From an uncultured Verrucomicrobiae bacterium (GTDB lineage Bacteria > Verrucomicrobiota > Verrucomicrobiia > Limisphaerales > UBA11358): a stretch of 64,000 nt of DNA. Shown in pieces: positions 2,784 through 55,820 of this stretch (the first letter of the stretch is position 1; each line of letters begins with the position of its first letter). The notes beneath the pieces are model-generated. The model was not told the DNA's origin. It ran no database searches and worked only from the letters and a program-made list of their open reading frames with translations. A program made the translations under genes and the position numbers. Where the stretch lies: contig CAWHAH010000007.1 in the NCBI GenBank assembly GCA_963827205.1, forward strand, positions 66,979 to 130,978, given 5' to 3'.

Positions 2784-2792
2784 AATTTTAAT

Positions 2793-2858
2793 CGTCCTCG
2801 TCTTCCTCCTCGTCCTCGTAATCGAAAACGGACAATCGAGGACGAGGACGAGCACGAG
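2793..2858. repeat. Hairpin with arms made of tandem CGTCCT/GAGGAC hexamers (possible terminator or REP-like element)
   Basis: The 5-prime arm cgtcctcgtcttcctcctcgtcctcg is followed by an 18-nt loop and the 3-prime arm cgaggacgaggacgagcacgag. The core cctcgtcctcg/cgaggacgagg pairs perfectly over 11 bp. It sits 10 nt after the stop at 2783. Confidence 0.7.
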
Positions 2859-2915
2859 ATGTGTTCCGCGCTTGCGCGATGACGAATCCGACAACATACT
2901 TCCGCCCTCAAAATT

Positions 2916-3905: not shown

Positions 3906-3920
3906 AATCGGAATTATTTT

Positions 3921-4565
3921 CTACGCCAACTTTCTGCGCCAGAAAACGACCGTGGCCAATCCCATGCCGATCAATGCAGCCGTGGAAGGTTCCGGTACGG
4001 TTGCCGAAATGCCAACTTGAGCGGCGAAATAAGGCGCCGCCTGCCAGCTTGCCATGTCGGTCGAATACATGGGAGTGCCCAGACTCCAACCGGCGATTGA
4101 CGCATAGCTGCTCGTCTGTGAAGCGCCCGCCAGGAAAACCGGGAAGCCATTTTGGACCAGTCCGGACCAGATTAAAATCCAATAGGTTGTCGAAGGATCC
4201 AGGAGGACTCCGGATGCGGTGTAAGTGCAAACGCCGCTGGACGTGGGATCCGAGCCCGTCAGCGGCGCCAGGCCGCTTCCCGGTACGCCGCCGTTGTTGT
4301 TGTAAATTGAAACGTGCAGATTGTTCCCGCTGGACGTCCCCGTCACCAGCATCATCAACTGCACGGAATCCAGCGTGTATGGCGAATTCGTCGGTCCGGT
4401 CACAAAAGGCTGCGCCATCCAGTAGTTGGCTCCCAGGCCAACGAAAATTGGATTGGTTGATCCAAGGCTGGACACAAAAAGCGTGCCTTGTGCATTCACC
4501 ATCGTTGCCGCAGCGAATGCGAACAAACCAAGCACGAATCCAACGATATGAATTTTGCTTTTCAT
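3921..4565 (-). CDS. PEP-CTERM sorting-domain secreted protein
   Basis: The C-terminus VPEPSTAALIGMGLATVVFWRRKLA is PEP, a TM helix and a basic tail. The internal Met at 4565 gives the signal peptide MKSKIHIVGFVLGLFAFAAATMVNAQG. The ORF-table start at 4700 adds an implausible Arg/Ala/Pro-rich leader. Confidence 0.8.
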   Translation of the reverse strand: MKSKIHIVGFVLGLFAFAAATMVNAQGTLFVSSLGSTNPIFVGLGANYWMAQPFVTGPTNSPYTLDSVQLMMLVTGTSSGNNLHVSIYNNNGGVPGSGLAPLTGSDPTSSGVCTYTASGVLLDPSTTYWILIWSGLVQNGFPVFLAGASQTSSYASIAGWSLGTPMYSTDMASWQAAPYFAAQVGISATVPEPSTAALIGMGLATVVFWRRKLA

Positions 4566-41213: not shown

Positions 41214-42902
41214 ATGAAAGCGAAATTGTTCGGCTGGACACTTTTATTTCTGTTGATGCTGCCAATCACTCCATTGTTTGGGCAAGCGCAGGAAACTAAT
41301 CACCCCGCCGATAAATCCAACTCGGTGCAATCAAGTGCGGTGCCGGTTGATGAAGCCACAGCGCAATTCGAGGCAACCAAAGTGAAGGCCGAGACGGGGG
41401 ATGCTCAGGCCCAATACAATCTGGCCGACTGCTACGCCAGTGGCCGAGGCGTGGCGAAGGATAATGTGGAGGCGCTAAAGTGGTATCGCAAAGCCGCCGA
41501 TGGGAACAACGCCGAGGCCCAATTGACTCTGGGCTCTTGCTGCGCCAATGGCTTCGGCGTGGCACAGGATTATGTCCAGGCTTACAAGTGGTTTACCCTC
41601 GCTGCCGCGCAAGGTGAACCATTGGCTAGAGTCGCTCGAAATAACATTGCCCCTTCTATGACGCCTGACCAAATCGCTCAAGGGGAACGGCTTCCGGCTG
41701 AATTTCATCCAAGAAAAGAAACGCCAGGTTCAACTTCTGAGTTCGAAGCAACTAAAGCGAAGGCCGAGACGGGAGATGCTCAAGCCCAATATAATCTGGG
41801 CATCTATTACGACCAAGGCCAAGGCGTCGCGCAGGACCATGCCGAGGCGGTCAAGTTGTATCGGGAAGCAGCAGACCAAGGTTTTGCCGAGGCACAAAAC
41901 GAGCTCGGCTTGTGTTACATCTCGAGTGGAGAAGGTCTAAGCTTGGCGCGGGGCTTTGTTGAGGCGGTGAAATGGTTTCGGGAGGCAGCAAATCAAGGTT
42001 ATGCCGAGGCTCAATGTAATCTTGGCCGTTGCTACCTCTTCGGTCGCGGCGTGTCACAGGATTATGTCCAGGCTTACAAGTGGTTTAATCTCGCTGCGGC
42101 GCAGGGAAACACCAATGCCAGTTTGTTTCTACCTGCTATTGCCTTACGCATGTCTCCAGAAGCTATTACCGAAGCAGAGAGATTATCCAGTGAGTTTAAG
42201 CCAAGCCAGGCAGCAGAGTCAGATTCTACGGTTTCTGGCGGAAAGGCTCCTGCTTCCATGCCAACTGCCAGAGGCACGGGATTTTTCATCACGGACGATG
42301 GTTATTTGATTTCCAATTATCATGTGGTCAAGGATGCGACGAAGGTTCGTTTGCTCACGGGCGCGGGTTTGATTGACGCCAAGGTGGTTCAGGTGGATGC
42401 GGCCAATGATCTGGCTTTGCTCAAAAAGAAGGCAGAGAAGAATGGAGAAGTTTGCAAGCCGCTGCCCATTGCGGCCAGTCGCACGGTGGCTCTGGGCGGC
42501 ACGGTAGCGACGGTCGGTTTTCCCGACATCGGTTTGCAGGGGTTCGCGCCCAAGCTGGCCAAGGGGGAAATCGCATCGCTGTCCGGGGCGGGGGATGACC
42601 CGCGGTATTTTCAAATCAGCGCGCCGGTGCAGCCGGGCAATTCGGGCGGGGCGCTGGTGGATGAGCGGGGCAACGTGATCGGCATCGTGTCGGCCAAGCT
42701 GGATGCGGGGGCGGCGCTGGCGGCGAGCGGGGCGTTGCCGGAGAATGTGAATTACGCGGTCAAGAGCAGTCTGCTGTTGAGCTTCCTGGAATCTGTCCCC
42801 GATGTTTCAGCCAAGCTCAAAGCGCCGGTCACGGCTGACCGGAAGTTTGAGGATGTGGTGAGGTCGGCGCAGGATGCGGCGGTGCTCGTCCTCGTTTATT
42901 GA
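41214..42902 (+). CDS. Secreted Sel1-repeat protein fused to a trypsin-like (S1C/DegP-type) serine protease domain
   Basis: It has a signal peptide and at least six Sel1 repeats (GDAQAQYNLADCYASGRGVAKDNVEALKWYRKAA...). The protease domain has His (LISNYHVV), Asp (ANDLALLK) and Ser (QPGNSGGALV). Confidence 0.85.
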   Translation: MKAKLFGWTLLFLLMLPITPLFGQAQETNHPADKSNSVQSSAVPVDEATAQFEATKVKAETGDAQAQYNLADCYASGRGVAKDNVEALKWYRKAADGNNAEAQLTLGSCCANGFGVAQDYVQAYKWFTLAAAQGEPLARVARNNIAPSMTPDQIAQGERLPAEFHPRKETPGSTSEFEATKAKAETGDAQAQYNLGIYYDQGQGVAQDHAEAVKLYREAADQGFAEAQNELGLCYISSGEGLSLARGFVEAVKWFREAANQGYAEAQCNLGRCYLFGRGVSQDYVQAYKWFNLAAAQGNTNASLFLPAIALRMSPEAITEAERLSSEFKPSQAAESDSTVSGGKAPASMPTARGTGFFITDDGYLISNYHVVKDATKVRLLTGAGLIDAKVVQVDAANDLALLKKKAEKNGEVCKPLPIAASRTVALGGTVATVGFPDIGLQGFAPKLAKGEIASLSGAGDDPRYFQISAPVQPGNSGGALVDERGNVIGIVSAKLDAGAALAASGALPENVNYAVKSSLLLSFLESVPDVSAKLKAPVTADRKFEDVVRSAQDAAVLVLVY

Positions 42903-42978
42903 GTAGCAGCCGACGTGAGGAGGCTCATTCTTTTGGCCGGAAGAAATTTGGATGGAGCGAACTGACGTTCGCTGCTAC
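42903..42978. repeat. GTAGCAGC-type inverted repeat
   Basis: The arms are gtagcagccgacgtgaggaggctc and gagcgaactgacgttcgctgctac. The element starts at the first base after the stop codon at 42902. Confidence 0.7.
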
Positions 42979-42999
42979 AAGCGGCGGTGCTGGTGCTGG

Positions 43000-43185
43000 T
43001 GTATTGAACTTGGAGTGCGGCAACATGTTACCGTTTTCCTCGACGCGACATGTCCACCCTCCGCAGTTCTGCTACGGAGGACGGGTCGCGTCGAACCAAA
43101 TCGCGGACATGTCCGCGCAGTCCAAGATTTTCGGCTCGCGAGGACGCTCGCCCTACCGGGCGCCGACATGTCTGCGCACTCCAAA
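43000..43185. repeat. Mosaic intergenic repeat, copy 3
   Basis: It contains gagtgcggcaacatgttaccg, gacgcgacatgtccaccctccgcagttctgctacggaggacggg, gcggacatgtccgc and gcgccgacatgtctgcgcactccaaagg. Confidence 0.65.
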
Positions 43186-43187
43186 GG

Positions 43188-44555
43188 TTACTGCAACCGC
43201 ATCGGCAACTGGAAGATGTTGAAATAAAGTTCCGAAAGGGTTGACCCGGTGTGTTCGCTCCGCACGTCCGGCCCGAATTGCAGGGTCGCCGCGGCGGCGA
43301 AGTTGTGAATCACCAGACAGTAGGTGCTGTTGACCATGATGCCCAGCAATTCGCCGGTACGGCTGAAAACCAGATCGCCGCGCGAAGGATTGAATTTCCC
43401 GAACAACGGGCGCCACAGGCTGTGATCCACTTTGACGTATTGCGGCGTGTTCAAATCAATCTGAAAGTTGCATTCACCGTAAGAACTTTCGTCCGTGGCC
43501 ACCGGCACCGTGTCCTGAAATTTGTAGGGGTCAGACGAAATGCGATAAACCTTGCCGCCGAGCCGGCGGACATCTTCCGGGCTGACCGGCATCATCACCA
43601 CGCGCGGGTCTGCCTTATGAAAGGACAATGAATGAATGGCCACCTGCGCGCCATTGCCGGCCAGTGTGCCGGTGAGCGAGTCCCAATCCGTGCCAGGGTC
43701 CCACAACTTCAGCGGCGTGTCCTGCACGTGGCACAAGGCATAAGTATTGGTGCCATCGGTCACCAGCACCGTTTTGGTTTCCCTGTTGTCGCTTGAATTC
43801 ATGCCTAGAAAGCCGGAACGCGAGGCCAGAATGTTTGCCTCGATCCGGTTGGAAACAAATTGGCTGAAAATGGCGTTCGGCGCCAGGGGCGTGTTCGCGC
43901 GGATTTCCTGGGTCAACTGGCTGGAGTTGGTCGCCAACGATTTGAAGCCCTCTGCCAGTTTGGCATTTTCCGTTCGTTGGGCCTGGACCTCCTGTTGCAT
44001 CAGGGCGGCGCGTTCGGCGGCGGCGCGCTTCTCCGTTTCGGACAACTGGAGTTGCTGGGCCAGTCGCTGTTGCTCGGCCTGGGCCAGCAGGTTGCTCTGG
44101 GTCAATTGATCGAGTTGCCGGCGCAGGGCGGCGGCGAGTTCCGATTGCCGTTGGGCCTCAGCCTGGGTCGCCGCGAGCTTTTGTTGTGACTGCGCGGAAG
44201 TATCCTGCAACTGGCGGTTCAGGCTTTCGAGGTTGGTTTGGGCGGCGGCGAATTGTTGCTGCAATTGCTGGTATTCCTGCTGGCGCGCGTTCAGTTGCGC
44301 CTGCTGCCGGTTCGCGGCTTCGTGCGCCGCCGCGAGCTGCTGCTGCAATTGCACGTGCCCCCGGCGTTCCTCTTCGAGGGCCAGTTTCATGACGGCGGCA
44401 AGGTCCCTGCCGGTGTCCGCCACCTCGTTGGTCGCCACCGTCACGTTGACCGGCGGGCGGGTGTTTTCGTCGGCCATCCGGTTGATGTCCGTCGAGAACG
44501 TCAGCAGGCTCAACAGCAGAAAATCGCAGATGACGATGAGGATGCTGCGGTTCAT
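43188..44555 (-). CDS. ExbD/TolR-like TM anchor + long coiled coil + trypsin-fold C-terminal domain protein
   Basis: 455 aa. The N-terminal TM helix has an embedded Asp (RSILIVICDFLLLSLLTF; compare ExbD in this window, VALIDVLIVLVIFL). A Q/A/L-rich coiled coil of about 170 aa follows. The C-terminal domain aligns by eye to the neighbouring protease: VLVTDGTNTYALCHV vs FFITDDGYLISNYHV, and NPSRGDLVFSRTGELLGIMV vs GNSGGALVDERGNVIGIV. Confidence 0.7.
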   Translation of the reverse strand: MNRSILIVICDFLLLSLLTFSTDINRMADENTRPPVNVTVATNEVADTGRDLAAVMKLALEEERRGHVQLQQQLAAAHEAANRQQAQLNARQQEYQQLQQQFAAAQTNLESLNRQLQDTSAQSQQKLAATQAEAQRQSELAAALRRQLDQLTQSNLLAQAEQQRLAQQLQLSETEKRAAAERAALMQQEVQAQRTENAKLAEGFKSLATNSSQLTQEIRANTPLAPNAIFSQFVSNRIEANILASRSGFLGMNSSDNRETKTVLVTDGTNTYALCHVQDTPLKLWDPGTDWDSLTGTLAGNGAQVAIHSLSFHKADPRVVMMPVSPEDVRRLGGKVYRISSDPYKFQDTVPVATDESSYGECNFQIDLNTPQYVKVDHSLWRPLFGKFNPSRGDLVFSRTGELLGIMVNSTYCLVIHNFAAAATLQFGPDVRSEHTGSTLSELYFNIFQLPMRLQ

Positions 44556-46267
44556 GACGGCAGGACGGGCGTTGGCATGGAAGCCGGGGCACCAGCAGTA
44601 TCAGCGGCGCCGGCTTCGGCTTCGAGCAGCAATTTCCGGCGCGCCGGGCGCAGGTTGAAAATTTTGAAGATGACCACGAAGATGATGCCGAACGACGTGG
44701 AGGAATAGGCCGCCATCAGGCTGAATTTAACCAGCCCCATGGAAAAGATGATGAGCGAAATGATGGTGCCGACGAAGCCGAGATAAAGGCCGGCGTCGAA
44801 CAGATGGTCTTCGTTTTCAAGGAGCTTGAGTTTCATGCGTGGCGGCACCCGTTGCCGGCGGATTTCCGCCAACTTCACGAGGCACGCCATGTACAGCAGC
44901 GCCTGCAGCACGAAAAACACCAGCAACGTCAGTATAATGGTCGGGTTCATAATGGTTTGTTTAATGCCAGCGATTCCGACAGGGACCGCGCCGCCCGCCA
45001 TGGGCAGTTGCAGTCGAAAGGAGAATCCCCCTTTCTGGCTCTCTCGCGCGAGAAACGGCTCGCTCAAGAGCAAGACCACGAGCAGAAAACCCAGCGAAAA
45101 TAAAAACTCACGGACCAGGTGGAATCCGCGCACCTGCAACGGTCGTTCCAAAAAGGATACGGCAGGCCGCGCAAAATGGAAAGCCCCGGCCAGGAAAAAT
45201 CCGCCGAGCAGGTAGCAGAGCCATTTCAGCGTCAGGGCCAGCCACGGCGTTTGAAAAGCACAACCCGCGGCAAAGTAAAAAAACGCTCCGAACGGATCGA
45301 ATGCAGTCACGCGCCGTTCCAGATCCGAATTGAAAAGCCGCTGGCCGCGTTGCGCCAGCTCGCTCACTCCGCCCGCGCCGTCATGCAGGCTCGCGCGCAG
45401 GTCCTCCAGCCCGCTCTGGCTGAATTTGGCGAGATATTTGGCGACCGCGGCGGGTTTGCCCGACAGTTGCACCGCCGCAAACAGCACGGGCAATTGTTCG
45501 CCGGCGTTGCGGACCTGGCCGGCCAGTTGGTGCAGCGTCCCGGTATCCTGAATTTGCGCGACAAACGCCACGAGCTGGTCCCAGTTGAGCCGATCGCCCA
45601 ACGACAGGAAATCCATGAGCACCTGCTCCAGCGGCTCCGAATTGCCGCCGCGGTTGGCCGCCGAAGCCGACAGGAAAATGGCGTCACTCATGCCCGCCGT
45701 CAAATGCCCGCCATCCAGCAACAATCCGCATTCCAACAGCGCCACATCAAAGGCCTGCCCCGAAGCCGATGACGACGGCGGAAAAAGAATGGTGTTGTTC
45801 AAGGCACGCGTTCGCAACAACTCCATCACCACGGAAGATGACGAAACGCGCAGATGGGCCAGGGCCGCCTCGCGGTTTTCCTGATGGATGATGAAATCGG
45901 TGAATGGTTCCGCGCCGGCCTCCGGAGCCTTGGCATTGCCGCCGAAAAGATTTTCCATGGGCGAGTCATCGCCCCACGCCAGCGCGTCCGGATACTGTCG
46001 CGCCTGATTGGTCACCGTCTCGCCGAGCCGGTCCCAGCCGGGAATTCCCGCGGCCCGCGCCGCCCGCATGAGCATTTTGGCCGCGCCCAATTTCTTCGCG
46101 CCCGCCAGGGCCTGTCCTTGCTCAAGCAGAGCGGGACCGTTCCTGCCGGCCTTTTGGATGACGCTGGCGTCCACTGCCCGCAGATACGCGGGTATCAACA
46201 GGCCGCCAACGAGCATCACCAGACCGAGGATGGCACAAATTAAAAAGCCTGGCCATCGGACCTTCAT
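44552..46267 (-). CDS. Polytopic membrane protein with a MotA/ExbB-like C-terminal channel module and a large N-terminal domain
   Basis: 571 aa. The C-terminal helical hairpin LYLGFVGTIISLIIFSMGLVKFSLMAAYSSTSFGIIFVVIFKIFN resembles the MotA/TolQ/ExbB signature (compare LLGLVGTIIGMMAVF...RATLIGLLICIPSLIF in ExbB here). Its stop overlaps the downstream start (ATGA). Confidence 0.7.
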   Translation of the reverse strand: MKVRWPGFLICAILGLVMLVGGLLIPAYLRAVDASVIQKAGRNGPALLEQGQALAGAKKLGAAKMLMRAARAAGIPGWDRLGETVTNQARQYPDALAWGDDSPMENLFGGNAKAPEAGAEPFTDFIIHQENREAALAHLRVSSSSVVMELLRTRALNNTILFPPSSSASGQAFDVALLECGLLLDGGHLTAGMSDAIFLSASAANRGGNSEPLEQVLMDFLSLGDRLNWDQLVAFVAQIQDTGTLHQLAGQVRNAGEQLPVLFAAVQLSGKPAAVAKYLAKFSQSGLEDLRASLHDGAGGVSELAQRGQRLFNSDLERRVTAFDPFGAFFYFAAGCAFQTPWLALTLKWLCYLLGGFFLAGAFHFARPAVSFLERPLQVRGFHLVREFLFSLGFLLVVLLLSEPFLARESQKGGFSFRLQLPMAGGAVPVGIAGIKQTIMNPTIILTLLVFFVLQALLYMACLVKLAEIRRQRVPPRMKLKLLENEDHLFDAGLYLGFVGTIISLIIFSMGLVKFSLMAAYSSTSFGIIFVVIFKIFNLRPARRKLLLEAEAGAADTAGAPASMPTPVLPS

Positions 46268-46380
46268 TACATCACCTGGAACAACTTACCTTGTGGCGTT
46301 TTAGACTACATATCAAAAGACCCTGTTCAAGGCGAAAAAAACGGGTGATTGATTTGCCGAAAGATTGAGGCGGCGGCGAT

Positions 46381-47646
46381 TTATTCGTATCGCAACGATT
46401 CAATCGGGTCGAGGTTCGCCGCCTTGTAAGCCGGATAAGTTCCGAACACGACTCCCACGATGGAACAAATCACCAAGCCCAGCACAATCCAGTCAACCGG
46501 GATGGCCGGTGGCACTTTCATAAACCAGGCGAGGACGTTGCCGCCGAGGATGCCGAGCACGACCCCAATGACGCCGCCGACTTCGCACAGGACGATCGCT
46601 TCCATGATGAATTGCGTCATGATGTTCCGTTTCTTGGCGCCGACGGCGCGGCGGACGCCGATCTCGCGCGTCCGCTCCGTGACCGAGACGAGCATGATGT
46701 TCATGATGCCGATGCCCGCCGCGATGAGCGCGATGGAGCTGACGACGGTCACGCCAATGCGCACAGCCCGGGTAAACGAATCGAATTGTTCGATGAGCGA
46801 GTTGTTGGAAAAGAGTTCGAAATCATCCGGCGCGCCAGGTGGGACCTTGCGAACGGCGCGCAGGATGCCGCGCACCTGCTCGACACAATCGTCATAGCTG
46901 GCCGCATCACGCGCCTGCACCAGGATGGTCAGGTCGTCCCACCAGCGTCCGTAGCGGTTGAGCGCCGTGGTGACGGGGATGATGGCAAAATTGTCCTGAT
47001 TGCCTTCCAGCGACCCGCCCTTGGGGGCGAGCACACCCACCACCGCGTATTTGTAACCGTTGATTTTGATCTCTTCGCCCATCGCCGAGCCAAACGGGAA
47101 CGCCGTTTTGGCCAGGGCGCTGCCGAGCACACAAACTTCCCGGGCGTTCTCCACGTCGTCTTCGGAAAGGATGCGGCCGTCCTCGACGTCCCAGTTGCGC
47201 GCCGGGAAACTGCCGGGAGTTTCACCGTACAATTCGGTGGTGGGCGCTGTCTGGGCAAAGCGGGTCGAAATCTGTCCGCGCCAGAAATCGCCTTCGATGC
47301 CCACACCGGCGGCCAGTGTGGCCCTCTCCTCCACCCGCCGTCCCTGTTCCAGCGTGACATAGGGACGCCGCCAGTATTTCTGCCAGTCGCTCGAATCACC
47401 AAACTGGGCCTCGGGCCAGCGCTGAATGGCAAAAGTCTGGCTGCCCAACTGGCTGAGTCCCGTTTCCGCGGTGCGCTTCAACACGCGCATGGCGGTCATG
47501 ACGACGATGATGGAGAACACGCCGATCAACACGCCGAGCAACGTGAGTGCCGAGCGCAGCTTATGCGCCGCCAGCGCGTTCATGGCCATGAGAAAACTCT
47601 CGCGTACCTCGGCAATAATCAGCGTGGTTGCGGGTTTGGTCTTCAT
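46381..47646 (-). CDS. ABC transporter permease, MacB/FtsX type
   Basis: 421 aa. It has an N-terminal TM helix (LRSALTLLGVLIGVFSIIVVMTAM), a large periplasmic domain, and a C-terminal FtsX-type 3-TM bundle with REIGVRRAVGAKKRNI. Confidence 0.88.
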   Translation of the reverse strand: MKTKPATTLIIAEVRESFLMAMNALAAHKLRSALTLLGVLIGVFSIIVVMTAMRVLKRTAETGLSQLGSQTFAIQRWPEAQFGDSSDWQKYWRRPYVTLEQGRRVEERATLAAGVGIEGDFWRGQISTRFAQTAPTTELYGETPGSFPARNWDVEDGRILSEDDVENAREVCVLGSALAKTAFPFGSAMGEEIKINGYKYAVVGVLAPKGGSLEGNQDNFAIIPVTTALNRYGRWWDDLTILVQARDAASYDDCVEQVRGILRAVRKVPPGAPDDFELFSNNSLIEQFDSFTRAVRIGVTVVSSIALIAAGIGIMNIMLVSVTERTREIGVRRAVGAKKRNIMTQFIMEAIVLCEVGGVIGVVLGILGGNVLAWFMKVPPAIPVDWIVLGLVICSIVGVVFGTYPAYKAANLDPIESLRYE

Positions 47647-47659
47647 CGGTTTGCCGGGC

Positions 47660-47693
47660 GTGATGCGTGAAACGTGAAACGTGAAACGTGATG
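47660..47693. repeat. GTGAAAC heptamer-repeat arm (downstream arm of the stem enclosing the four-helix-bundle gene)
   Basis: The sequence is gtgatgcgtgaaacgtgaaacgtgaaacgtgatg. Its first 32 nt are identical to 50428-50459. Confidence 0.8.
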
Positions 47694-47713
47694 GGTGGTG
47701 CGTGAATGCATGG

Positions 47714-48223
47714 TTAAGCCAGTGGAATGTTCTGGAACAATTGCGTCAGCTCATCGCGATCGAAAGGAGATGCCGTGTCCGGCGTTGTCAAAGAAGTTTG
47801 GTAAGGGGGGCTGTCTTCGCGGAGGAGCGAACCGCGCTGATCCGGAACCATCGTGAGTAGCAGGCGGATGATTTGGGTCGAAAGACGAATCCGATGTTCT
47901 GCGACTCTCTCGCCGAGCACATGACGGCCATCGTAATACCAACCACGGCTCTCGCGTGCTGAACCCAAACCATATTCGTAAAACCGGGCGCGGTCTTTGC
48001 CTGTGCCTCGTGAATAGCCCTCGGCCACGTTCGCTCCAATCGACCTGAGAGCCCGATAAAGCTGATCCGAAAGTCCGAGCGTGCGTTTGTCTTTCATCAA
48101 TTTGCTCACGTCATGCCAGCCCAAGTCCGCAGCGAACAATGCCAGCCGATAAACCTCGACTTTCCAAAGTGAATCGCCCGCTATTTCCACCGGCACCGAC
48201 TTTAACCATTCATCATAACTCAT
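47714..48223 (-). CDS. Four-helix-bundle protein (23S rRNA intervening-sequence protein family)
   Basis: 169 aa. The segments YRLALFAADLGWHDVSKL, DQLYRALRSIGANVAEGYSRGTGKDRARFYEYGLGSARESRGWY are typical of the TIGR02436/PF05635 family. It is inserted between two MacB-type permease genes. Confidence 0.85.
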   Translation of the reverse strand: MSYDEWLKSVPVEIAGDSLWKVEVYRLALFAADLGWHDVSKLMKDKRTLGLSDQLYRALRSIGANVAEGYSRGTGKDRARFYEYGLGSARESRGWYYDGRHVLGERVAEHRIRLSTQIIRLLLTMVPDQRGSLLREDSPPYQTSLTTPDTASPFDRDELTQLFQNIPLA

Positions 48224-48242
48224 AACCGGCCTCTTTCTCGCA

Positions 48243-48279
48243 CCTCACGTTTCACGTTTCACTCGTCACGTTTCACGCC
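48243..48279. repeat. GTTTCAC heptamer-repeat arm (upstream arm in transcript orientation)
   Basis: cctcacgtttcacgtttcactcgtcacgtttcacgcc starts immediately after the permease stop at 48280-48282. It is complementary to 47660-47699, with an 18-bp perfect core. Confidence 0.8.
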
Positions 48280-49515
48280 TCATTCGCTTCTCAAGGCCTC
48301 CACCGGGTCCATCCGCGCCGCGCGCCAGGCCGGCAGGAAACCGGAAATCACCCCCGTCAACAACGACACGAGCAAGGCAATGATGACGATATTTACGGAC
48401 AGAGTGGCCGGGAAGAGCAGGTGGGTGACCGCCAGCGTTACCAGCCAGGCAATGCCCAGTCCGATGATTCCGCCCATCAGACAGATGCAAGCGGCCTCGA
48501 TCAGAAATTGCAGCAAAATGTTGCGACGCTTGGCGCCGATGGCCTTGCGCACGCCAATCTCGCGTGTCCGTTCAACCACCGAAACGAACATGATGTTCAT
48601 GATGCCGATGCCGCCGACGAACAGCGCCAGGCTGGTGACGAACAGGCCAACGATGGCGATGGTGCGGGTCTGCTGATGGAACCATTGCACGATCTGGTCC
48701 TGCTGGTTGATGCCGAAGTCATCCCCCTCGTCGGGCGCCAGGTGCCGGATGTGGCGCATGGTCTGGCGCAATTCCTCCCGGGTTTCATCCAGTTGCGTCA
48801 GTTCATTGACCTTCACCTCCACCCGATCAATGGTGGGACGATTCCAGATGTCCGCCAGAAATTCCCGGATCGGAATGATCACCCGCTCGTCCAGGCTCCA
48901 ACCCAACATCTTCCCCTGTTTTTCCAGCACCCCGACGACTTGAAAGGACTGGTTATTAATTTTAATCCGGGCGCCCAAGGGTGAATCCCCACGAAACAGG
49001 TTGGTGGCCACGTCGCTGCCGATCACACAAACCGGTTGCCCGCCTTCGGCATCCGCGGCGGTCAGGAAGCGGCCTTGGGCCACATTCACACCGCTGGTTT
49101 GCAAATAGGGATCCGTGGTGCCGATGACGAGGACGAGGGTGGCGCTCCTGGTTTTGTATTGCAACGTCTCCCGGTCATATACCGTGGGGGCGACGGTCGC
49201 GATGGGGGCGAGCTGCCGGGCCAGGGCCTCGGCTTCCCTCAGCGAAATAGGCCGGCGTCGCTTCTGGGCTTTGAGCCAGTCGTCATAGGAGCCGCTGAAC
49301 CAGCTGTATTGTTGCACGTAAAAAACATCCGCGCCGATCGAGGAAATGCTTTTGATGAACGCCTGGTCCAGTCCGTTAATAGCCGCGCCCATGAGGGTGA
49401 CGGTGACGATGCCGATGACGATGCCGATGGTGGCAAGCGCTGAACGCATCTTGTTCGCGCGGACGGCGTCCCACGAAATGCCGAGACCTTCGCGGATTTC
49501 GGCGAAAAATTTCAT
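48280..49515 (-). CDS. ABC transporter permease, MacB/FtsX type
   Basis: The Met at 49515 gives MKFFAEIREGLGISWDAVRANKMRSALATIGIVIGIVTVTLM. The FtsX motif is REIGVRKAIGAKRRNI. The table start at 49587 runs into a repeat element. Confidence 0.88.
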   Translation of the reverse strand: MKFFAEIREGLGISWDAVRANKMRSALATIGIVIGIVTVTLMGAAINGLDQAFIKSISSIGADVFYVQQYSWFSGSYDDWLKAQKRRRPISLREAEALARQLAPIATVAPTVYDRETLQYKTRSATLVLVIGTTDPYLQTSGVNVAQGRFLTAADAEGGQPVCVIGSDVATNLFRGDSPLGARIKINNQSFQVVGVLEKQGKMLGWSLDERVIIPIREFLADIWNRPTIDRVEVKVNELTQLDETREELRQTMRHIRHLAPDEGDDFGINQQDQIVQWFHQQTRTIAIVGLFVTSLALFVGGIGIMNIMFVSVVERTREIGVRKAIGAKRRNILLQFLIEAACICLMGGIIGLGIAWLVTLAVTHLLFPATLSVNIVIIALLVSLLTGVISGFLPAWRAARMDPVEALRSE

Positions 49516-49544
49516 GGTGGCGTGAGAATTTTCAACGACGATTT

Positions 49545-49680
49545 TCCCCTCACCCGGACCCTCTCCCTCAGGGAGAGGGAACAGCAAAGTTCGTCACCTG
49601 AAAAGTTCGACACCGCCCGATTCGCCGACCGGCTGGCGACCATTCCCCCTCTGCCGGGGGAGAGGGCCGGGGTGAGGGTG
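49545..49680. repeat. Pair of CCCTCTCC/GGAGAGGG hairpins with outer CCCCTCACCC/GGGGTGAGGG inverted arms
   Basis: The sequence is cccctcacccggaccctctccctcagggagaggg ... ccccctctgccgggggagagggccggggtgagggtg. It fills the ATPase-permease spacer. Confidence 0.7.
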
Positions 49681-49708
49681 GCAGTAATATTTGTTTTCAC
49701 AAAACTGT

Positions 49709-50422
49709 TTAGCCGTGGGTTGTCGCAGTAACCTTGGTTTCATGCTGCTTCTCGTCACTGGCAATCAGCCCATCGCGAATGCGGATGATGCGGCGGGCTT
49801 GTTTGGCGATGTCCTCCTCGTGCGTGACCACGATGATGGTGTTGCCTTTCCGGGAAAGCTCCTCGATCAAGGCCATGATTTCCGCGCCGGTTTTGGAATC
49901 GAGATTGCCCGTCGGTTCATCGGCCAGCAACAGGGACGGCCGGTTGACGAGGGCGCGGGCGACGGCGACGCGCTGGCGCTGGCCGCCGGAAAGTTCGTTG
50001 GGCTTGTGATGAACGCGGTCCGCCAGGCCGACCTGCGTGAGTGCGTCGAGGGCGATCTGGCGGCGGGTTTCCGCCGGCACACCGGCGTAAATGAGCGGCA
50101 GCTCGACGTTATGCAACGCGTTCGAGCGCGCCAGCAGGTTGAAGGTCTGGAAGATGAAACCAATTTCACGGTTGCGGATTTCCGCGAGTTGATTGTCGTC
50201 CATGTCGCTGACGCTGACGCCATTCAATTCGTAATGGCCGGAAGTGGGCGTGTCGAGGCAGCCGATGAGGTTCATCAGCGTGGATTTGCCGGACCCGGAC
50301 GGGCCCATGATGGCGACGTATTCGCCGCGCTGGATTTCGAGCGACACATCGCGCAGCGCGTGGACGGTTTCCGCGCCCATCTGGTAACGCCGCGAAATAT
50401 TCTGGAACCGGATCAGGCTCAT
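49709..50422 (-). CDS. ABC transporter ATP-binding protein (MacB/LolD-type)
   Basis: The Met at 50422 gives [13 protein letters not shown]. It has Walker [10 protein letters not shown], signature [15 protein letters not shown] and Walker [13 protein letters not shown]. Confidence 0.92.
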
Positions 50423-50427
50423 GTTCA

Positions 50428-50511
50428 GTGATGCGTGAAACGTGAAACGTGAAACGTGAGGTCGGTTGGCACACCGCGCTTTTTCACGCATCACGTTTCA
50501 CGTTTCATGAC
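50428..50511. repeat. Gene-less hairpin made of the same GTGAAAC heptamer arms
   Basis: The left arm is gtgatgcgtgaaacgtgaaacgtgaaacgtgagg and the right arm is tttttcacgcatcacgtttcacgtttcatgac, about 20 nt apart. Alternative pairings of 17 bp and 13 bp are possible. Confidence 0.8.
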
Positions 50512-50518
50512 AACTTTG

Positions 50519-51871
50519 TTATTTTGTCTCCGCGGTCGCGAGTCCCTTTTTAATTTTGGAGCCGTCCTTTAAATCGCGGCTGATGGCGCGGTAACCGCCG
50601 GAGACAATTTCCTCGCCATTGGTGAGGCCGTCGGTGATCTCCCAGTAATTGTCGTCGCAAATGCCGATTTTCACCGGCACGGCCTTTACGTGATTGCCTT
50701 CCACAACAAAAACAACGTCCAATGGTTTGGTGGATTCCTTGGTCTTCGAGGCTGAGGCGGCATTCGTGCCCGACGACACGGTATTGGTGCCCGAAGTATT
50801 GGCGGCCGCGAGATTGGTGGCGGCGGCATTGGTTCTGCCGGCTTTCGGCGGATCCATTTTCTTCGGCGTTGGCGGGCGGGTGGTGACGCTGGCCAGCGGA
50901 ACGGTGAGCACGTTGGTGCAATACTTGGTCTCGATGTCGGCGCTGACAGACATTCCGGGGCGGAAATCTTCCTTGTCGGTCAAACGGATGCGCACTTGGA
51001 ACTTGGTGGCTTCCTGCGACTGGCTGCTGCCGGAAGAGCCGCCGGCCTGGTTGCTGTCTTTCGATGAACTGGCCACATCCGTCACCACGCCGGCGAACTT
51101 GCGGTCCTTGAACGCGTCCACATCCAGCCGCGCCTTCTGGCCGGGCTTGATGCCCACCACGTCCATCTCACCGATGTCCACCCGCGCCTCCATCTGGTTC
51201 AAATCCGAGATGACCAGGATTTCAGTCCCGGCAAATTGCATGGTGCCCAAGACACGCTCGCCGAGCTGCGAGTTCAATTTGGTGATGGTGCCGTCGAGCG
51301 GGGAAACAACCGTCGTTTTGTTCAGCGAATCCTGCGCGCTGTCCACGAGCGCCTTGGCGACGTTCACCTGGTCGTCGGCGCTGTCGAGTTGCGCCTTGGC
51401 CACGTCCCGGGCGGATTTGAAGCCGATGAAATCCGATTCCGAAAGCAGCTTCTGGTGGAACAATTCCAGATTGCGGTCGTAGTCCGCCTGGGCTTTTTCC
51501 AGGTTCGCCACCGCCGAGGCCTTGGCGGCGAGCGAGGATTCGTAGCCGGCCTTCGCCTGGTTGACCGCGGCGATATAAATGTCCGGGTTGATCTTCACCA
51601 GCAGATCGCCTTTCTTGACCTGCTGGCCTTCCTTGACCGGCAATTCGATGATTTCGCCGCTGACTTCCGGGCTGATGGTGACCTGCACGACGGGCTGGAT
51701 TTTGCCGTTGGCCACCACGATGTTGGTGAGACTGTGGCGGGCGACCAGTTCCGTCTGGACTGTGATGGCCGGCTCGCGCTTTTTGAAAACGGCCAACAAC
51801 ACCAGCGCCACCAGCACCAGTCCGATGACTGAAAAGATGATGATCTTCCGGCGTTTTTTAGGCTTTGCCAT
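50519..51871 (-). CDS. Efflux periplasmic adaptor (HlyD/MacA family)
   Basis: The Met at 51871 gives MAKPKKRRKIIIFSVIGLVLVALVLLAVF. It has a lipoyl-like VKKGDLLVKI, a coiled-coil hairpin, a beta-barrel, and a Thr/Ala/Ser-rich insert. Confidence 0.88.
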   Translation of the reverse strand: MAKPKKRRKIIIFSVIGLVLVALVLLAVFKKREPAITVQTELVARHSLTNIVVANGKIQPVVQVTISPEVSGEIIELPVKEGQQVKKGDLLVKINPDIYIAAVNQAKAGYESSLAAKASAVANLEKAQADYDRNLELFHQKLLSESDFIGFKSARDVAKAQLDSADDQVNVAKALVDSAQDSLNKTTVVSPLDGTITKLNSQLGERVLGTMQFAGTEILVISDLNQMEARVDIGEMDVVGIKPGQKARLDVDAFKDRKFAGVVTDVASSSKDSNQAGGSSGSSQSQEATKFQVRIRLTDKEDFRPGMSVSADIETKYCTNVLTVPLASVTTRPPTPKKMDPPKAGRTNAAATNLAAANTSGTNTVSSGTNAASASKTKESTKPLDVVFVVEGNHVKAVPVKIGICDDNYWEITDGLTNGEEIVSGGYRAISRDLKDGSKIKKGLATAETK

Positions 51872-51936
51872 GATCTCTGCTATTAAGACAAGGTGAACGG
51901 AAATTTGTTTCGGGGAATTATATTTTAAGGCCGCTT

Positions 51937-52722
51937 TTACAATGCCCACTGTCCCAAACCGATGGCGATGAGCAGCAATTCAATCAACACCCAAAAGCCG
52001 AAAACAACCGCAAAGACCCTGGCCGTGGGCGCGCCCGAAACTTTGGCCAACCCGATGGCCAGCACCCCCGTGTGCCAGAGATAAATGATGTTGGCCGCGC
52101 CGAGCAGGAGGTGAACGCGATTTTTCGGATCAAAATCATTTGCCAACAAGGCGAGGCTCGGTCCTGCATAAAGCCGGCCGAGGATTACGGCCAGCAGCGT
52201 GCCGACGACCATTCCGAGGACAATGATGACGGAAGACAACCCGGCGAGTTCCACGGCTTTCAAATAATCAAACCGCGCCTTGAGGAGCCAGCGTCCGAGC
52301 AGCCACAACACCAAGGCCCACCCGAACAGCGAGACGAAACTATAGATGACAATGCCAACGCTTCCGAAAACGGCCAGCATCGTCGGGCCCATAAACTTCT
52401 CCATCACCTGCAACGCCTGGTCTTCCTGGGCTTGGGTCAATTTGCCTTGTTGCACCAGCTTGTCCATGGCCTTGACCTGTTGGTCGTGAACGGTCTGTTG
52501 AATGGCCGGCTGGGCGAACATGATGCACACGGAAATCGCCCCCACCATGGCGTAGATAATCACCGGCACGAGCCAGTTGGCCACAGACGGCGGAGTTGCC
52601 TTGACCTCCTCAAAGACTTCACCGGGAGCGGCAAAGACATTCAGCAGCCGCCCGGCCAGCGAAGTCGTTGGCGCTGGCGTTCCGAGGGGTGGCGGTTCGG
52701 GCATGGATGGGACTGGTTCCAC
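51937..52722 (-). CDS. Yip1-domain membrane protein
   Basis: 261 aa. The N-terminal region LLNVFAAPGEVFEEVKATPPSVANWLVPVIIYAMVG is followed by five hydrophobic helices. Confidence 0.7.
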   Translation of the reverse strand: MEPVPSMPEPPPLGTPAPTTSLAGRLLNVFAAPGEVFEEVKATPPSVANWLVPVIIYAMVGAISVCIMFAQPAIQQTVHDQQVKAMDKLVQQGKLTQAQEDQALQVMEKFMGPTMLAVFGSVGIVIYSFVSLFGWALVLWLLGRWLLKARFDYLKAVELAGLSSVIIVLGMVVGTLLAVILGRLYAGPSLALLANDFDPKNRVHLLLGAANIIYLWHTGVLAIGLAKVSGAPTARVFAVVFGFWVLIELLLIAIGLGQWAL

Positions 52723-52921
52723 AGATTTAGTCTGGTTTATCCATTACTTAGGCAAAATCCAGCCGAAGTTACAAGAAAAGTCGGCAATTTTTTTGATTGA
52801 ACAGCATTACCGGGAGGGATTTTCCCCATTAGTCGGGCCGTGCCGAGCCTCGTTGAACCGCAGCATTGAGAACGCAACCATCGCAGCGCGGCTCCTGATG
52901 ATTTCACTTTCCATCGCCTTC

Positions 52922-52990
52922 GTTGCAGCCGTTGTGAGCCGGCTCAAATCTCTACCCGGCCATAATGAGCGGACTGACGTCCGCTGCTAC
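52922..52990. repeat. GTAGCAGC-type inverted repeat
   Basis: The arms are gttgcagccgttgtgagccggctc and gagcggactgacgtccgctgctac. The element lies 3-prime of the phosphoesterase gene. Confidence 0.65.
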
Positions 52991-53072
52991 AAAACCATTT
53001 CCTGAAGATACGAGTCCTGACGGCCCTTGAAATTGGTGTTAATTCACACAATTTGTGGCAAAGAGTCCGTTT

Positions 53073-55820
53073 TCAATCATCGTCCGTCGCTTTCACTGCC
53101 CAGACCGGATACGGCACTTGCGAGCCTTTCATCGCGCGCCACAAAATGCGGTTGAACAAATCTTCCGGACATTGATCTTCCTTTTCCAGCGGCAACTTTG
53201 CGGAAACGTACGCGTCTTTGCGCAATTGCGAATCGGAGATTTCCCGTGGCGATTTGTTCATTTCATCCAGTGGCACCTTGTTAGTCACCGCGTCGAACGG
53301 TGTGAAATCCGGAGTACCGGTAAAACAATCGAACATCGGCGTGGCCGTCGCGTCCATCTGGTTCATCGGCGGCAGGCCGAGCATCAATTCCATCGTGCGC
53401 AACACGCTGGTCTGGTTGTATTGCGTGTGGACAACCGCGCCGCGTTTGGTGTAGGCGCTGGCGACGTAGGCGGTCGTGCGGTAACCGCTCACGTGGTCCC
53501 AACCACTCTGCGGATCGTCCTCGATGGCGAAGAGGCAGGTGTTCGTCCAGAATTTCGAATGGCTGACGGCCTCGACGATTCGGCCGAACGCGAGGTCGTT
53601 GTCGGCCACCTGCGCTTCGGGTGTGGGCGAACCGAATCTCGTGCCGCTGGTGTGGTCATTGGGCAGCCACATGATGACGAGGTTCGGCAGATTGTCCGCC
53701 GCTTCAAACCGATTCAGCTCCTTGATGAATTGCGCGGCGCGCCATACGTCCGGCACATCCAGGTCCCAGCCGATGGTATTCGTCAGGGTGTAAGGCCGCA
53801 ACGCCTCGATGTCCGGCTCGCTCGTCAACGCGATTTCGTCCGTGCCGTTCACAAAATTGCGGTAACAATCGAGGAAGCCTGGCTTGCCTTTGCGCGCGGG
53901 GTCCTTCCAATGTTTTTTGTCGGAGGTGAACTCGCCCAGGTCGCAGACCGTCCGGCCGTGTGCGAGGGCGTCGTTCCAGATGAACCCCGCCGGCGAATAG
54001 GCCAGCGCGTCCCGGGTGGTGTCGCCGTCGCCGCCGCTCGGATAACTGCGCGGCCAGCCGGCGAACTCGCGCTCCAGGTAATCCGTCCCGATGCCGCTGT
54101 CGGTCCAGTTGTGGCCGTCGGCGCTCAAGATGCTGCAGCAATACGTGTTGTCCAGTAGCGCAAAATCGTGGACGAGCTTGTGTTCGTTCGGCGTAACGCG
54201 TTCGCCGAACGCGCACAGATCGGCATTGCCATTGCCCGCCTTCACGTCGCCGAGCACCTGATCGTAACTGCGGTTTTCCTTGATGATGTAAATGACGTGC
54301 TGGAACACGCTGGGTTCGCCGACGCGTTCAGGCACGGCCCGGGCGGGCTGGTTTTCGCGCGGCGGCAATTTCGCCTGCGCCAAAAGCGGGTACCGCAAAT
54401 CCGCCAGCGCGGTCGGCGTGAAGGCGGCCAGTTCTTTGGCCGAGGGAACAGGCACCAGCGAGAGCGAGCCGGCGTATTGCTTGGTGTTGAACCCCGCACC
54501 CTTGCCGAATCCCCTTCGCGGCCTTTCCATTTTCGCGCCGAGGTTCTTGATGTTCGCGACATAAATTTTGTCCTGGTTTGCATCGAACGCAATCGCGCCG
54601 GGAAACCAGCCGGCGGGAATCAGGCCGAGCAATTTCGATTTGCCGGGTTTGAAACGAAACACCGCGACCGCGTTCTGGGTGCCGTTGCAAACAAAGAGTT
54701 TTTTCCCGGATTTGTTGAATGCGAGCGCGTTGGGCTGCGCGCCGAACAAATCGGCGGGATTCTGCCGCGCGCAAATCGTCTCGACGATTTTGTCCGTGCG
54801 TGTGTCAATAACGCTCAACGTGTCGCTGCCGGAGTTGGCGACGACGAGGAATTTTCCGTTCGGCGAAAGCGCCATCGCGCCGGCGCGCGGGCCGGTCACA
54901 ATTTCCTGAATTGGGTGGGGCGAGGCTACTGACGAGCCGGTGTTGTCGCGGCTCGCGAGGACGCTCGCCCCACCTGCTTCTGCAAGATCAATCACCGACA
55001 CCGAGCCTTCATTCGCAATGGAGCGATCATCCACGCGAACCTTTGTTCCTTGTCCCGCCGGGCCGGTGACGCTGTTCGCGTCGGGCCGGCGGCCGCCCGG
55101 GTTGCTCACGTAAATTTTTTTGCCGGCCAGCACCACGTCAAATGGAGCGACGCCCACGTCCCATGTCCGCAAAACTTTCCCGGTCACGGCGTCGAGTTCA
55201 ACGAGATGATTGGAAAGGTTGCCCGCGACGTAGAGTCGCCTGCCGTCGCGTGAAACGGCGATGCCGGCGGGAATTTCCGCTGCGCGCAGGGGCGCATTGG
55301 CCGGCGGCAGCGCGATGGAAAACAGCGGCGAAACTTTCTGGTCCTTGCCGACGCCGAAAACCTTGATGTCACCGTTGACGTTCGCCATGTAAATCCGCGA
55401 GCCGTCCGGCGAAAACGCCAGGCCGGTGAAACTCAACTGCGCCTTTTCGTCCGGGTTGAGAATTTCCATGGCTGTCGGCGTCTGTTCCTGTGCTCCTCCG
55501 GACGGGAGAGCAACGCGCTGAAAAATCTTTCCAGTGGCCGGATCCACCACGATCAATTCATGCGTCAGCCCGGCGGTCACGAGAATCTTGCCGTCGGGAC
55601 TCAACGCCAGCGCGTTTGGCCGGATGCCCGGCAGTTCGACCTGCGTTCCAGCGGGCGTGACGAGTTGGTTGGCCGGCGTGACCAGGCCGTTCGTGTCGCG
55701 GCCGACGGTTTCAGTCGTGGCGTCAAAATCCTCCCCGCGCAACCCGCTGACGGAGAAAATGAGATTGAATCCGACAAATGCGCAAAGCCCGAGGCAACGG
55801 ATGAATAATTTCAGTTTCAT
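53073..55820 (-). CDS. Secreted beta-propeller (YncE-like) + phosphoesterase-family (PLC/acid phosphatase-type) fusion protein
   Basis: The Met at 55820 gives the signal peptide MKLKLFIRCLGLCAFVGF. The N-terminal half has repeated propeller blades (..GDIKVF.., ..KIYVSNPG.., ..KLFVCNG.., ..KIYVANI..). The C-terminal half carries VIYIIKENRSYDQVLGD. Confidence 0.85.
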   Translation of the reverse strand: MKLKLFIRCLGLCAFVGFNLIFSVSGLRGEDFDATTETVGRDTNGLVTPANQLVTPAGTQVELPGIRPNALALSPDGKILVTAGLTHELIVVDPATGKIFQRVALPSGGAQEQTPTAMEILNPDEKAQLSFTGLAFSPDGSRIYMANVNGDIKVFGVGKDQKVSPLFSIALPPANAPLRAAEIPAGIAVSRDGRRLYVAGNLSNHLVELDAVTGKVLRTWDVGVAPFDVVLAGKKIYVSNPGGRRPDANSVTGPAGQGTKVRVDDRSIANEGSVSVIDLAEAGGASVLASRDNTGSSVASPHPIQEIVTGPRAGAMALSPNGKFLVVANSGSDTLSVIDTRTDKIVETICARQNPADLFGAQPNALAFNKSGKKLFVCNGTQNAVAVFRFKPGKSKLLGLIPAGWFPGAIAFDANQDKIYVANIKNLGAKMERPRRGFGKGAGFNTKQYAGSLSLVPVPSAKELAAFTPTALADLRYPLLAQAKLPPRENQPARAVPERVGEPSVFQHVIYIIKENRSYDQVLGDVKAGNGNADLCAFGERVTPNEHKLVHDFALLDNTYCCSILSADGHNWTDSGIGTDYLEREFAGWPRSYPSGGDGDTTRDALAYSPAGFIWNDALAHGRTVCDLGEFTSDKKHWKDPARKGKPGFLDCYRNFVNGTDEIALTSEPDIEALRPYTLTNTIGWDLDVPDVWRAAQFIKELNRFEAADNLPNLVIMWLPNDHTSGTRFGSPTPEAQVADNDLAFGRIVEAVSHSKFWTNTCLFAIEDDPQSGWDHVSGYRTTAYVASAYTKRGAVVHTQYNQTSVLRTMELMLGLPPMNQMDATATPMFDCFTGTPDFTPFDAVTNKVPLDEMNKSPREISDSQLRKDAYVSAKLPLEKEDQCPEDLFNRILWRAMKGSQVPYPVWAVKATDDD

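Follow-up and report, generated by a model that had tools for sequence, protein, structure and literature searches.

The stretch of DNA analysed here, a 64-kb window (64,000 nucleotides of contig CAWHAH010000007.1 from an uncultured Verrucomicrobiae bacterium), carries on its minus strand an operon with genes for MacB-type permeases, in which a small gene for a predicted four-helix-bundle (4HB) protein, together with two inverted arms built from tandem heptamers, fills the stop/start junction between the two permease genes. We consider it probable, although far from certain, that this locus is one copy of a widespread and long-lived cassette, composed of a PF05635 gene and tandem-repeat inverted arms, and that this cassette is the operon-resident counterpart of those intervening sequences (IVSs) of 23S rRNA that bear an open reading frame (ORF). 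The structural and evolutionary statements made below have good support; on the RNA mechanism and on what the protein does, we offer hypotheses. An earlier interpretation of the same letters, referred to in the following as the original prediction, had placed the 4HB gene in the loop of a long-range stem, likened the arrangement to the IVSs of 23S rRNA and proposed a cassette that is either mobile or processed out of the operon transcript. Taken as a whole, this interpretation is partly supported.

Positions are given in window coordinates, and gene order is read on the minus strand, i.e. in the orientation of the transcript. The upstream permease gene (permease-2; 48280..49587, minus strand; coordinates of the maximal ORF, with a likely ATG near 49515) codes for a protein with MacB_PCD and FtsX domains, and its stop codon, TGA at 48282-48280, abuts the 5' arm of the cassette, which starts straight after it (48239..48279, minus strand; sequence GGCGTGAAACGTGACGAGTGAAACGTGAAACGTGAGGTGCG). 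This arm is 41 nt long, consists of the array GGCGTGA AACGTGA CGAGTGA AACGTGA AACGTGA GGTGCG and contains TGA in all three frames. It is followed by a Shine-Dalgarno-like AGAGG motif on the loop side of the stem (48230..48234, minus strand), which is conserved among syntenic relatives and separated by a 6-nt gap from the ATG of the 4HB gene (47714..48223, minus strand; ATG at 48223, TAA at 47716-47714; 169 amino acids). The 3' arm (47657..47702, minus strand), composed of CGCACCACCCAT, (CACGTTT)x3, CACGCAT and CACGCC, complements the 5' arm and ends 10 nt ahead of the ATG (47646) of the downstream permease gene (permease-1; 46381..47646, minus strand), which again codes for MacB_PCD and FtsX domains and whose ATG overlaps the upstream TGA as ATGA in relatives with an empty site. 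These coordinates confirm the predicted order of stop codon, arm, ORF, arm and start codon. The other genes of the operon, as identified by profile matches, are those of an ABC ATPase and a HlyD-type adaptor.

A repeat search recovered the arms as an inverted repeat of 35 nt (47657-47691 / 48245-48279) that is 86% complementary, with the two copies 553 nt apart. The heptamer counts agree with this result: with up to two mismatches allowed, the heptamer dimer GTGAAACGTGAAAC occurs 11 times in the window compared to 0.67 times expected, and nine of these occurrences are found at two places, both inside the MacB-type operon. The arms are thus complementary and heptamer-built, as had been claimed. 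In folds of 47640-48295, the minimum-free-energy and the centroid structure alike paired the arms as helices of 7 bp and 5 bp plus a long helix, which leaves the ORF in the loop of the stem as predicted. The fold of the whole 656 nt had a z-score of -3.4; for the arms joined by a short linker, we obtained -59.6 kcal/mol compared to -27.4 +/- 3.4 kcal/mol for shuffled sequences (z = -9.6). A consensus scan of the cassette detected neither a sigma-70-like promoter nor an intrinsic-terminator-like site.

The ORF matches PF05635 with 52.5 bits (cut-off 33.8) and TIGR02436 with 55.4 bits (cut-off 24), which upholds its assignment to the rRNA-IVS protein family, and its closest solved relative is XCC0516 (PDB 2GSC, E = 9e-4). 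The motif GxxRxxxSxxxNxxE was described for this family (PMC3936711); residues 57-68 of the ORF (RALRSIGANVAE) fit RxxxSxxxNxxE, the leading G being absent. The AlphaFold2 model of the protein is weak (pLDDT 58.6) and comprises four long helices and a short C-terminal helix, with low confidence around residues 127-153. The top Foldseek matches, 2RLD and 2GSC, have weak E-values and, as they were obtained from a low-confidence model, are consistent with the family without constituting independent evidence for it. The bundle domain (residues 1-125) is basic with a pI of 9.4, and the C-terminal tail is acidic and in part modelled with low confidence. In all 13 syntenic orthologs, the ORF has a length of 169 codons, and dN/dS ranges from 0.06 to 0.15, apart from a value of 0.34 for the closest pair, which has diverged little. 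The constant length and the dN/dS of 0.06-0.15 indicate that the 4HB ORF is a working gene, and, judged by these ratios, its product is under purifying selection.

A single query from the 4HB subfamily matched about 5,400 clusters. To our knowledge, structures have been solved for members of the PF05635/TIGR02436 family, but a function is known only for the retroelement protein Avd. It is very improbable that the gene in the window itself codes for an Avd, i.e. for the accessory protein of a diversity-generating retroelement. The PF05635 family does resemble Avd (PMC10053308), and the two are homologous in fold and family, but, unlike in Avd loci, permease genes lie on both sides of the gene and neither a reverse transcriptase nor a pair of template and variable repeats is adjacent to it; the same was found for the relatives that we inspected. 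Within 42700-53200, a search for long repeats recovered only the heptamer arms and the paralogous permease genes. This reading was rejected, as the permease neighbours and the lack of a reverse transcriptase and of a template repeat contradict it at the locus.

A search of one genome per species yielded 249 relatives of the 4HB protein, of which the best 80, with amino acid identities of 59-94%, were analysed. Their taxon labels comprise Verrucomicrobiota, Anaerolineae and other Chloroflexota, Acidobacteriota, Poribacteria, Lentisphaerota, Latescibacterota, Calditrichota, Rhodothermales and others, i.e. at least eight phyla. Nearly all of these 80 relatives have a heptamer array upstream of the gene and the complement of this array downstream. 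For 79 loci, the best local inverted repeat formed by the two 90-nt stretches that flank the gene was scored, with same-length pseudo-genes placed elsewhere in each locus serving as controls. The median score was 41 compared to a control median of 16 (control 99th percentile, 27), and 65 of the 79 loci exceeded every control from their own locus. The tandem period of the arms is 7, with the units GTGAAAC, GTGATGC and GTAAAAC; in a strict test, period 7 was present in 42-44 of the 80 flanks, compared to 3% of control windows with any tandem period. The unit variants vary among loci, yet agree between both arms of one locus. Of the 79 loci, 54 have stop codons in three frames in the 5' arm, and 63 have them in the 3' arm when this is read in antisense. 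Measured by medians, the 5' arm begins 3 nt ahead of the end of the upstream stop codon, and 12 nt separate the 3' arm from the downstream start. Where the flanking frame was unambiguous, the neighbouring genes were co-oriented with the 4HB gene (32 versus 2 upstream, 40 versus 5 downstream). The gene contexts are manifold, at least 31 of them being unrelated, and include gas-vesicle, thiolase, xanthine-dehydrogenase-like and CRISPR Cmr operons. A scan of viral contigs revealed no close 4HB relative.

The cassette in the gas-vesicle cluster (L340, 1940-2577) is located just upstream of a GvpL/GvpF gene, and its protein is identical on 19 metagenome contigs, with one context throughout. Seven metagenome-assembled genomes (MAGs) labelled as Bifidobacteriaceae, Limnocylindrales, Sulfopaludibacter or Acidoferrum (L132, L212, L214, L229, L233, L268 and L273) contain the Verrucomicrobia-type operon with its synteny fully preserved.

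A tblastn search of plasmids detected a 4HB gene in Picosynechococcus sp. PCC 7003, which is 42% identical over 62 residues only. This gene is located in a type III-B operon on plasmid NZ_CP016476.1 (L282, 1408-1837), where it lies between cas10 and cmr3 and shares their orientation; the inverted arms on its two sides are composed of GGAGATAA-type octamers. The relatives of this copy, which we refer to as subfamily B to distinguish them from the above close relatives (subfamily A), are mostly from Bacteroidota and also from Omnitrophota and CPR. Their arm units are 8-10 nt long, e.g. GGAGTTAA and GAAGTTAA, and the corresponding distances between arm and gene are +3 and 11 nt. In 43 of 56 loci, the inverted repeat outscored every control taken from that locus. 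Thus, other 4HB genes, close and distant, are flanked by inverted arms, a point on which the original prediction had been made to depend. The cassette keeps its arm type across phyla. Genes for a 23S_rRNA_IVP in cas operons have been treated as candidate cas accessory genes (PMC3936711; PMC10910872). These genes are from the same family, but the repeat-built arms of the Picosynechococcus copy suggest, in contrast to these reports, a cassette inserted into cas operons, and the 4HB genes of cas operons may be cassettes that were inserted there as elsewhere, which might account for the scoring of the family as CRISPR-associated.

These genomes are rich in heptamer arrays, which often stand solo, so that two independent arrays might simply happen to flank a small gene, by chance or as a by-product. 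We find this explanation hardly credible: the arms are always inverted in orientation, the unit variants are matched, and the arms accompany the gene across phyla. The comparison with the own-locus controls, which the above fractions of the loci in both subfamilies surpassed altogether, contradicts this explanation, and it was rejected.

At the permease-permease junction, we compared 80 orthologous operons and distinguished five states. In the first and commonest state, the junction is empty, with stop and start codon overlapping as ATGA. This state includes relatives with 95% permease identity; orthologous operons without the cassette, for which the original prediction had proposed to look, thus exist, and the ATGA overlap is kept in them. 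In the second state, the junction holds the 4HB cassette, and in the third, it is occupied by ORF-less hairpins of other heptamers (CGAAATC, TGGATNA and GTTGCGG; L206, L213, L214, L219, L226, L238, L244 and L248). The fourth state is a remnant, found in L221, that consists of the 5' arm and the leader only. In the fifth state (L209, about 2440-2980, and likewise L227), the junction contains a small gene that is co-oriented with the operon and flanked by inverted GGGGCGAGACTCCGTCGAGCCC repeats. The gene in L209 is a relative of the REP-associated tyrosine transposases (RAYTs; NF047646, E = 2.7e-19; PDB 4ER8, E = 8e-8), and a Pfam scan of this ORF gave no match. The adaptor-ATPase junction is as variable as the permease junction and harbours ORF-less hairpins of other heptamers in L123, L125, L129, L131, L203 and L210; across both junctions, the arm heptamers of such hairpins are CGAAATC/GAATGAC, TGGATNA, GTTGCGG and AACATCC. 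It looks as if ORF-less, repeat-built hairpins were a general class at operon junctions in Limisphaerales-like genomes.

Judged by this comparison, the gene plus its arms is a discrete unit of insertion and deletion, and the loss of the cassette appears to be precise, with the ATGA overlap being restored. ATGA flanks the insert on both sides and occurs once in empty sites; since the stop and start codons need ATGA anyway, selection would mimic a target-site duplication. In a neighbour-joining tree of the downstream permease, the operons with the cassette are confined to one half, where they are interleaved with the empty, hairpin and RAYT states. The divergence of the 4HB protein tracks the divergence of the permease, and the cassette is kept at the permease junction down to about 76% permease identity. 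The simplest reading that we infer from this pattern is that the cassette was inserted long ago and was afterwards lost precisely on repeated occasions or underwent allelic replacement.

The long retention at the junction, the divergence of the 4HB protein and the permease in step, the purifying selection on the protein and the fact that some relatives adjoin other ABC-transporter genes could also be explained by a host regulatory device that is not mobile, in which the stem, as a processing or stability element inside the operon, would determine how strongly the two permeases are expressed relative to each other, with the small gene coding for a functional accessory of the efflux pump. We regard such a device as unlikely, since gene and arms recur in the various unrelated contexts mentioned above, from gas-vesicle, thiolase and xanthine-dehydrogenase-like to CRISPR Cmr operons, and operons at 95% permease identity work without the cassette. 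Based on these contexts and on the junction being empty in most orthologous operons, the idea of a pump accessory was rejected.

The closest known system is the ORF-bearing IVS of 23S rRNA, as present in Coxiella, Leptospira, Brucella and Haemophilus, which has in common with the cassette the protein family, a stem formed by terminal repeats and the location of the ORF in the loop. The Coxiella IVS has a 28-bp terminal-repeat stem with an S23p ORF in the loop, is excised by RNase III and has, immediately 5' of the ORF, tandem heptamers (GACAGAT) that vary in copy number; the nature of IVSs as elements has long been suspected (PMC4990558). The parallel drawn in the original prediction holds in these respects, with tandem heptamers and, presumably, the need for host transcription being shared by the Coxiella IVS and the locus. 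Unlike IVSs, the locus is situated at the junction of an mRNA operon and not in helix 45 or 25 of 23S rRNA, and its arms are made up almost entirely of tandem 7-nt units. Whereas the Coxiella S23p ORF is decaying and probably not translated (PMC4990558), the ORF described here has a good ribosome-binding site and evidently experiences purifying selection. No Rfam match was obtained at E <= 1 in 46000-52000, nor was there an Rfam match in 10 relatives whose flanks had no clear co-oriented reading frame. Because of its residence outside 23S rRNA, we count the locus as a variant of the IVSs and not as a member of them.

According to the mechanism that we propose, the cassette would have no promoter of its own and would be transcribed along with its host operon. 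The arms would then pair to form a stem of about 40 bp that loops the cassette out; the 5' arm would provide the upstream gene with stop codons in three frames, and the base of the stem would bring the upstream stop codon to within about 10-15 nt of the downstream start. The insertion would thereby be tolerable, just as the stem of an IVS merely extends an rRNA helix. RNase III has a preference for duplexes that span at least about two helical turns, and its cleavage of the stem would free a monocistronic 4HB mRNA and separate the two permease cistrons. As a duplex of about 40 bp is a generic substrate of RNase III, such cleavage is likely; excision by this enzyme has been shown for IVSs, whereas for the locus in the window we infer it from the duplex preference of RNase III and from the IVS precedent.

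The data from RNA runs that we used are assembled contigs, which carry no read ends. The exact sequence of the window is present in DNA metagenomes only, and the RNA runs hold relatives, the ORF of which is covered by RNA-run contigs. These contigs also include empty-site alleles, both for the window's junction in relatives and for a Segatella copri cassette. In metatranscriptome contigs from soil and wetland, k-mers of the arm (47652-47695) are 30- to 100-fold above flanking genes; in runs X46, X49, X50 and X51, the summed depth of contigs with heptamer arrays amounts to 450-4250, compared to about 20-80 for flanking genes. The array-bearing metatranscriptome contigs have many different flanks, including ORF-less hairpin joints. 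The excess in depth and the diversity of the flanks suggest that heptamer arrays are transcribed at many loci in soil and wetland communities.

Several observations weigh against the cassette and the mechanism as proposed. Isolated mismatches in the arms were G·U versus A·C in 34 versus 45 cases in subfamily A and in 21 versus 26 cases in subfamily B. As there is no excess of G·U, the complementarity of the arms could persist via arm-to-arm conversion or recombination at the level of DNA rather than through selection on the sense RNA; this test neither supports nor excludes a role of the RNA. RNAalifold detected one compensatory pair among the 13 syntenic orthologs, a low number that is due to the tandem repeats shifting register, which makes the alignment uninformative. 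About 15-25% of the loci of the family have no clear arms, and one copy on a Pseudanabaena plasmid has none, as judged by eye. The partly unreliable labels of the MAGs weaken the phylum counts. With regard to movement, the cassette does not code for a transposase or integrase, and we found no recent transposition, since all pairs of coding sequences with at least 89% nucleotide identity share their context. The best pair from different contexts has 81% nucleotide identity, in a sample of one genome per species in which copies within a genome are under-sampled. Identical proteins on 19 and on 25 contigs are each found in one context. A present-day mobility of the cassette, which the original prediction had considered, was not borne out, as near-identical copies all share their context.

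The heptamers of the cassette also form an ORF-less hairpin within the same operon (50428..50509, minus strand), between the stop codon of the HlyD-type adaptor gene (50519-50521) and the ATG of the ABC ATPase gene (50422-50420). This hairpin folds at -41.7 kcal/mol (z = -5.5) and is conserved, including its loop, in several relatives (L122, L124, L126, L133, L219 and L222). Its 3' arm (50428-50459) is identical over 32 nt to 47660-47691, resulting in direct repeats 2.7 kb apart, and the stretch 48242-48276 of the 5' arm of the cassette is 86% complementary to 50428-50462. As the four copies of the arm in the operon are mutually complementary, alternative long-range pairing or recombination across the ATPase and permease genes would be possible. 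The loop of the hairpin contains 14 non-repeat nucleotides (AAAAAGCGCGGTGT), 13 of which match the leader following the heptamer array in the L130 cassette; the same stretch aligns to the leader of the L133 cassette with a 1-nt gap. The match between loop and leader suggests that gene-bearing cassettes and ORF-less hairpins are related forms.

Such a relationship would be expected if the 4HB protein were the dedicated partner of the repeat hairpins and promoted their maintenance or spread, in a partnership resembling that of REPINs and RAYTs, a reading to which we assign a limited probability. The gene-flanking copy would then be the master element, and ORF-less hairpins, e.g. 50428-50509, would tentatively be regarded as its non-autonomous relatives. 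It is conceivable, at about the same level of doubt, that the protein binds units of 7-9 nt, possibly one per subunit of a pentameric ring. The related 2GSC is indeed a pentameric toroid, the bundle domain is basic, and the homologue Avd is from a retroelement system; however, the fold has no known catalytic motif. The architecture resembles that of RAYT genes with inverted REPs, in that inverted copies of a hairpin-forming repeat bracket a small gene, this repeat being present at further intergenic junctions that lack the gene, and a real RAYT-REP unit occupies the identical permease junction in L209 and L227. Purifying selection and a long stay in one place with vertical inheritance are features that the abstracts of the RAYT literature report for RAYTs as well.

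The distribution of the arrays speaks on both sides of such a partnership. In the flanking DNA, subfamily A loci have 118 solo arrays of the A type per Mb and none of the B type, and subfamily B loci have 46 of the B type per Mb and none of the A type, but this co-occurrence of array and subfamily is confounded by phylogeny. Arrays of (GTGAAAC)x3 are found in the phyla of subfamily A, yet a 4HB gene is near only 2 of 120 sampled loci with such an array, and hairpins of quite different heptamers (CGAAATC, TGGATNA and GTTGCGG) occupy the same junctions with no 4HB gene present. Compared to REPIN-RAYT systems, the 4HB protein is a helical bundle without HUH or tyrosine motifs (PF05635 and TIGR02436 being its only matches), the arms of the cassette are tandem 7-10-mers and not REP palindromes, and the spread of the cassette across phyla differs from the mostly vertical inheritance of REPIN-RAYT pairs, as far as their abstracts state it. 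REPIN-RAYT is thus the closest analogue in logic, and the IVS remains the closest known system. Extended to the entire PF05635/TIGR02436 family, the partnership would amount to a second REPIN/RAYT-like system, with a non-enzymatic, ring-forming nucleic-acid binder as partner of a hitherto unrecognised, cross-phylum class of tandem-repeat hairpins; the protein would recognise units of 7-10 nt, the cassettes would be master copies and the hairpins their derivatives, and the IVSs and the 'CRISPR-associated' IVPs would be cassettes that landed in rRNA and cas operons. We consider this generalisation doubtful.

With regard to the repeats themselves, the TAACTGA heptamer repeats (STRR type) of cyanobacteria and Beggiatoaceae have a patchy distribution across phyla, and horizontal transfer has been suspected for them (PMC4679880). 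Like the cassette arms, they are intergenic tandem units of 7 nt beside start and stop codons and contain stop codons in three frames in one orientation; unlike the arms, they form direct arrays, with 1 inverted case in 170 sets (PMC4679880). A four-helix-bundle gene was not mentioned in those parts of this article that a term search brought up, and no published description of the arrangement of gene and inverted arms was found in a literature survey of incomplete coverage.

If cassettes at operon junctions, as we favour, are the general form, the IVS would be a special case of a broader element, which bears on the origin of ORF-bearing IVSs, a question that dates back to the early 1990s. The stem would in this case be a testable device that renders insertions into transcribed units harmless, and the reports on the 4HB family as 'CRISPR-associated' would need to be re-read. 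The comparison also points to tandem-repeat hairpins being numerous between the cistrons of operons in Verrucomicrobiota, Chloroflexota and Bacteroidota, where they likely affect the processing of operon mRNA.

Two further ORFs on the minus strand are located downstream of the operon, 43188-44555 (455 amino acids) and 44552-46267 (571 amino acids), neither of which has a Pfam match; the former is rich in coiled-coil-like repeats of Q and A, and the latter resembles a membrane protein. The peptide ERTDVRCYK is common to ORF translations at about 42950-43230 and at 52580-53005, on both sides of the region. The repeat search, with the seed length that it employed, did not recover a repeat linked to this peptide; the shared peptide itself hints at a further dispersed repeat that flanks the operon region.

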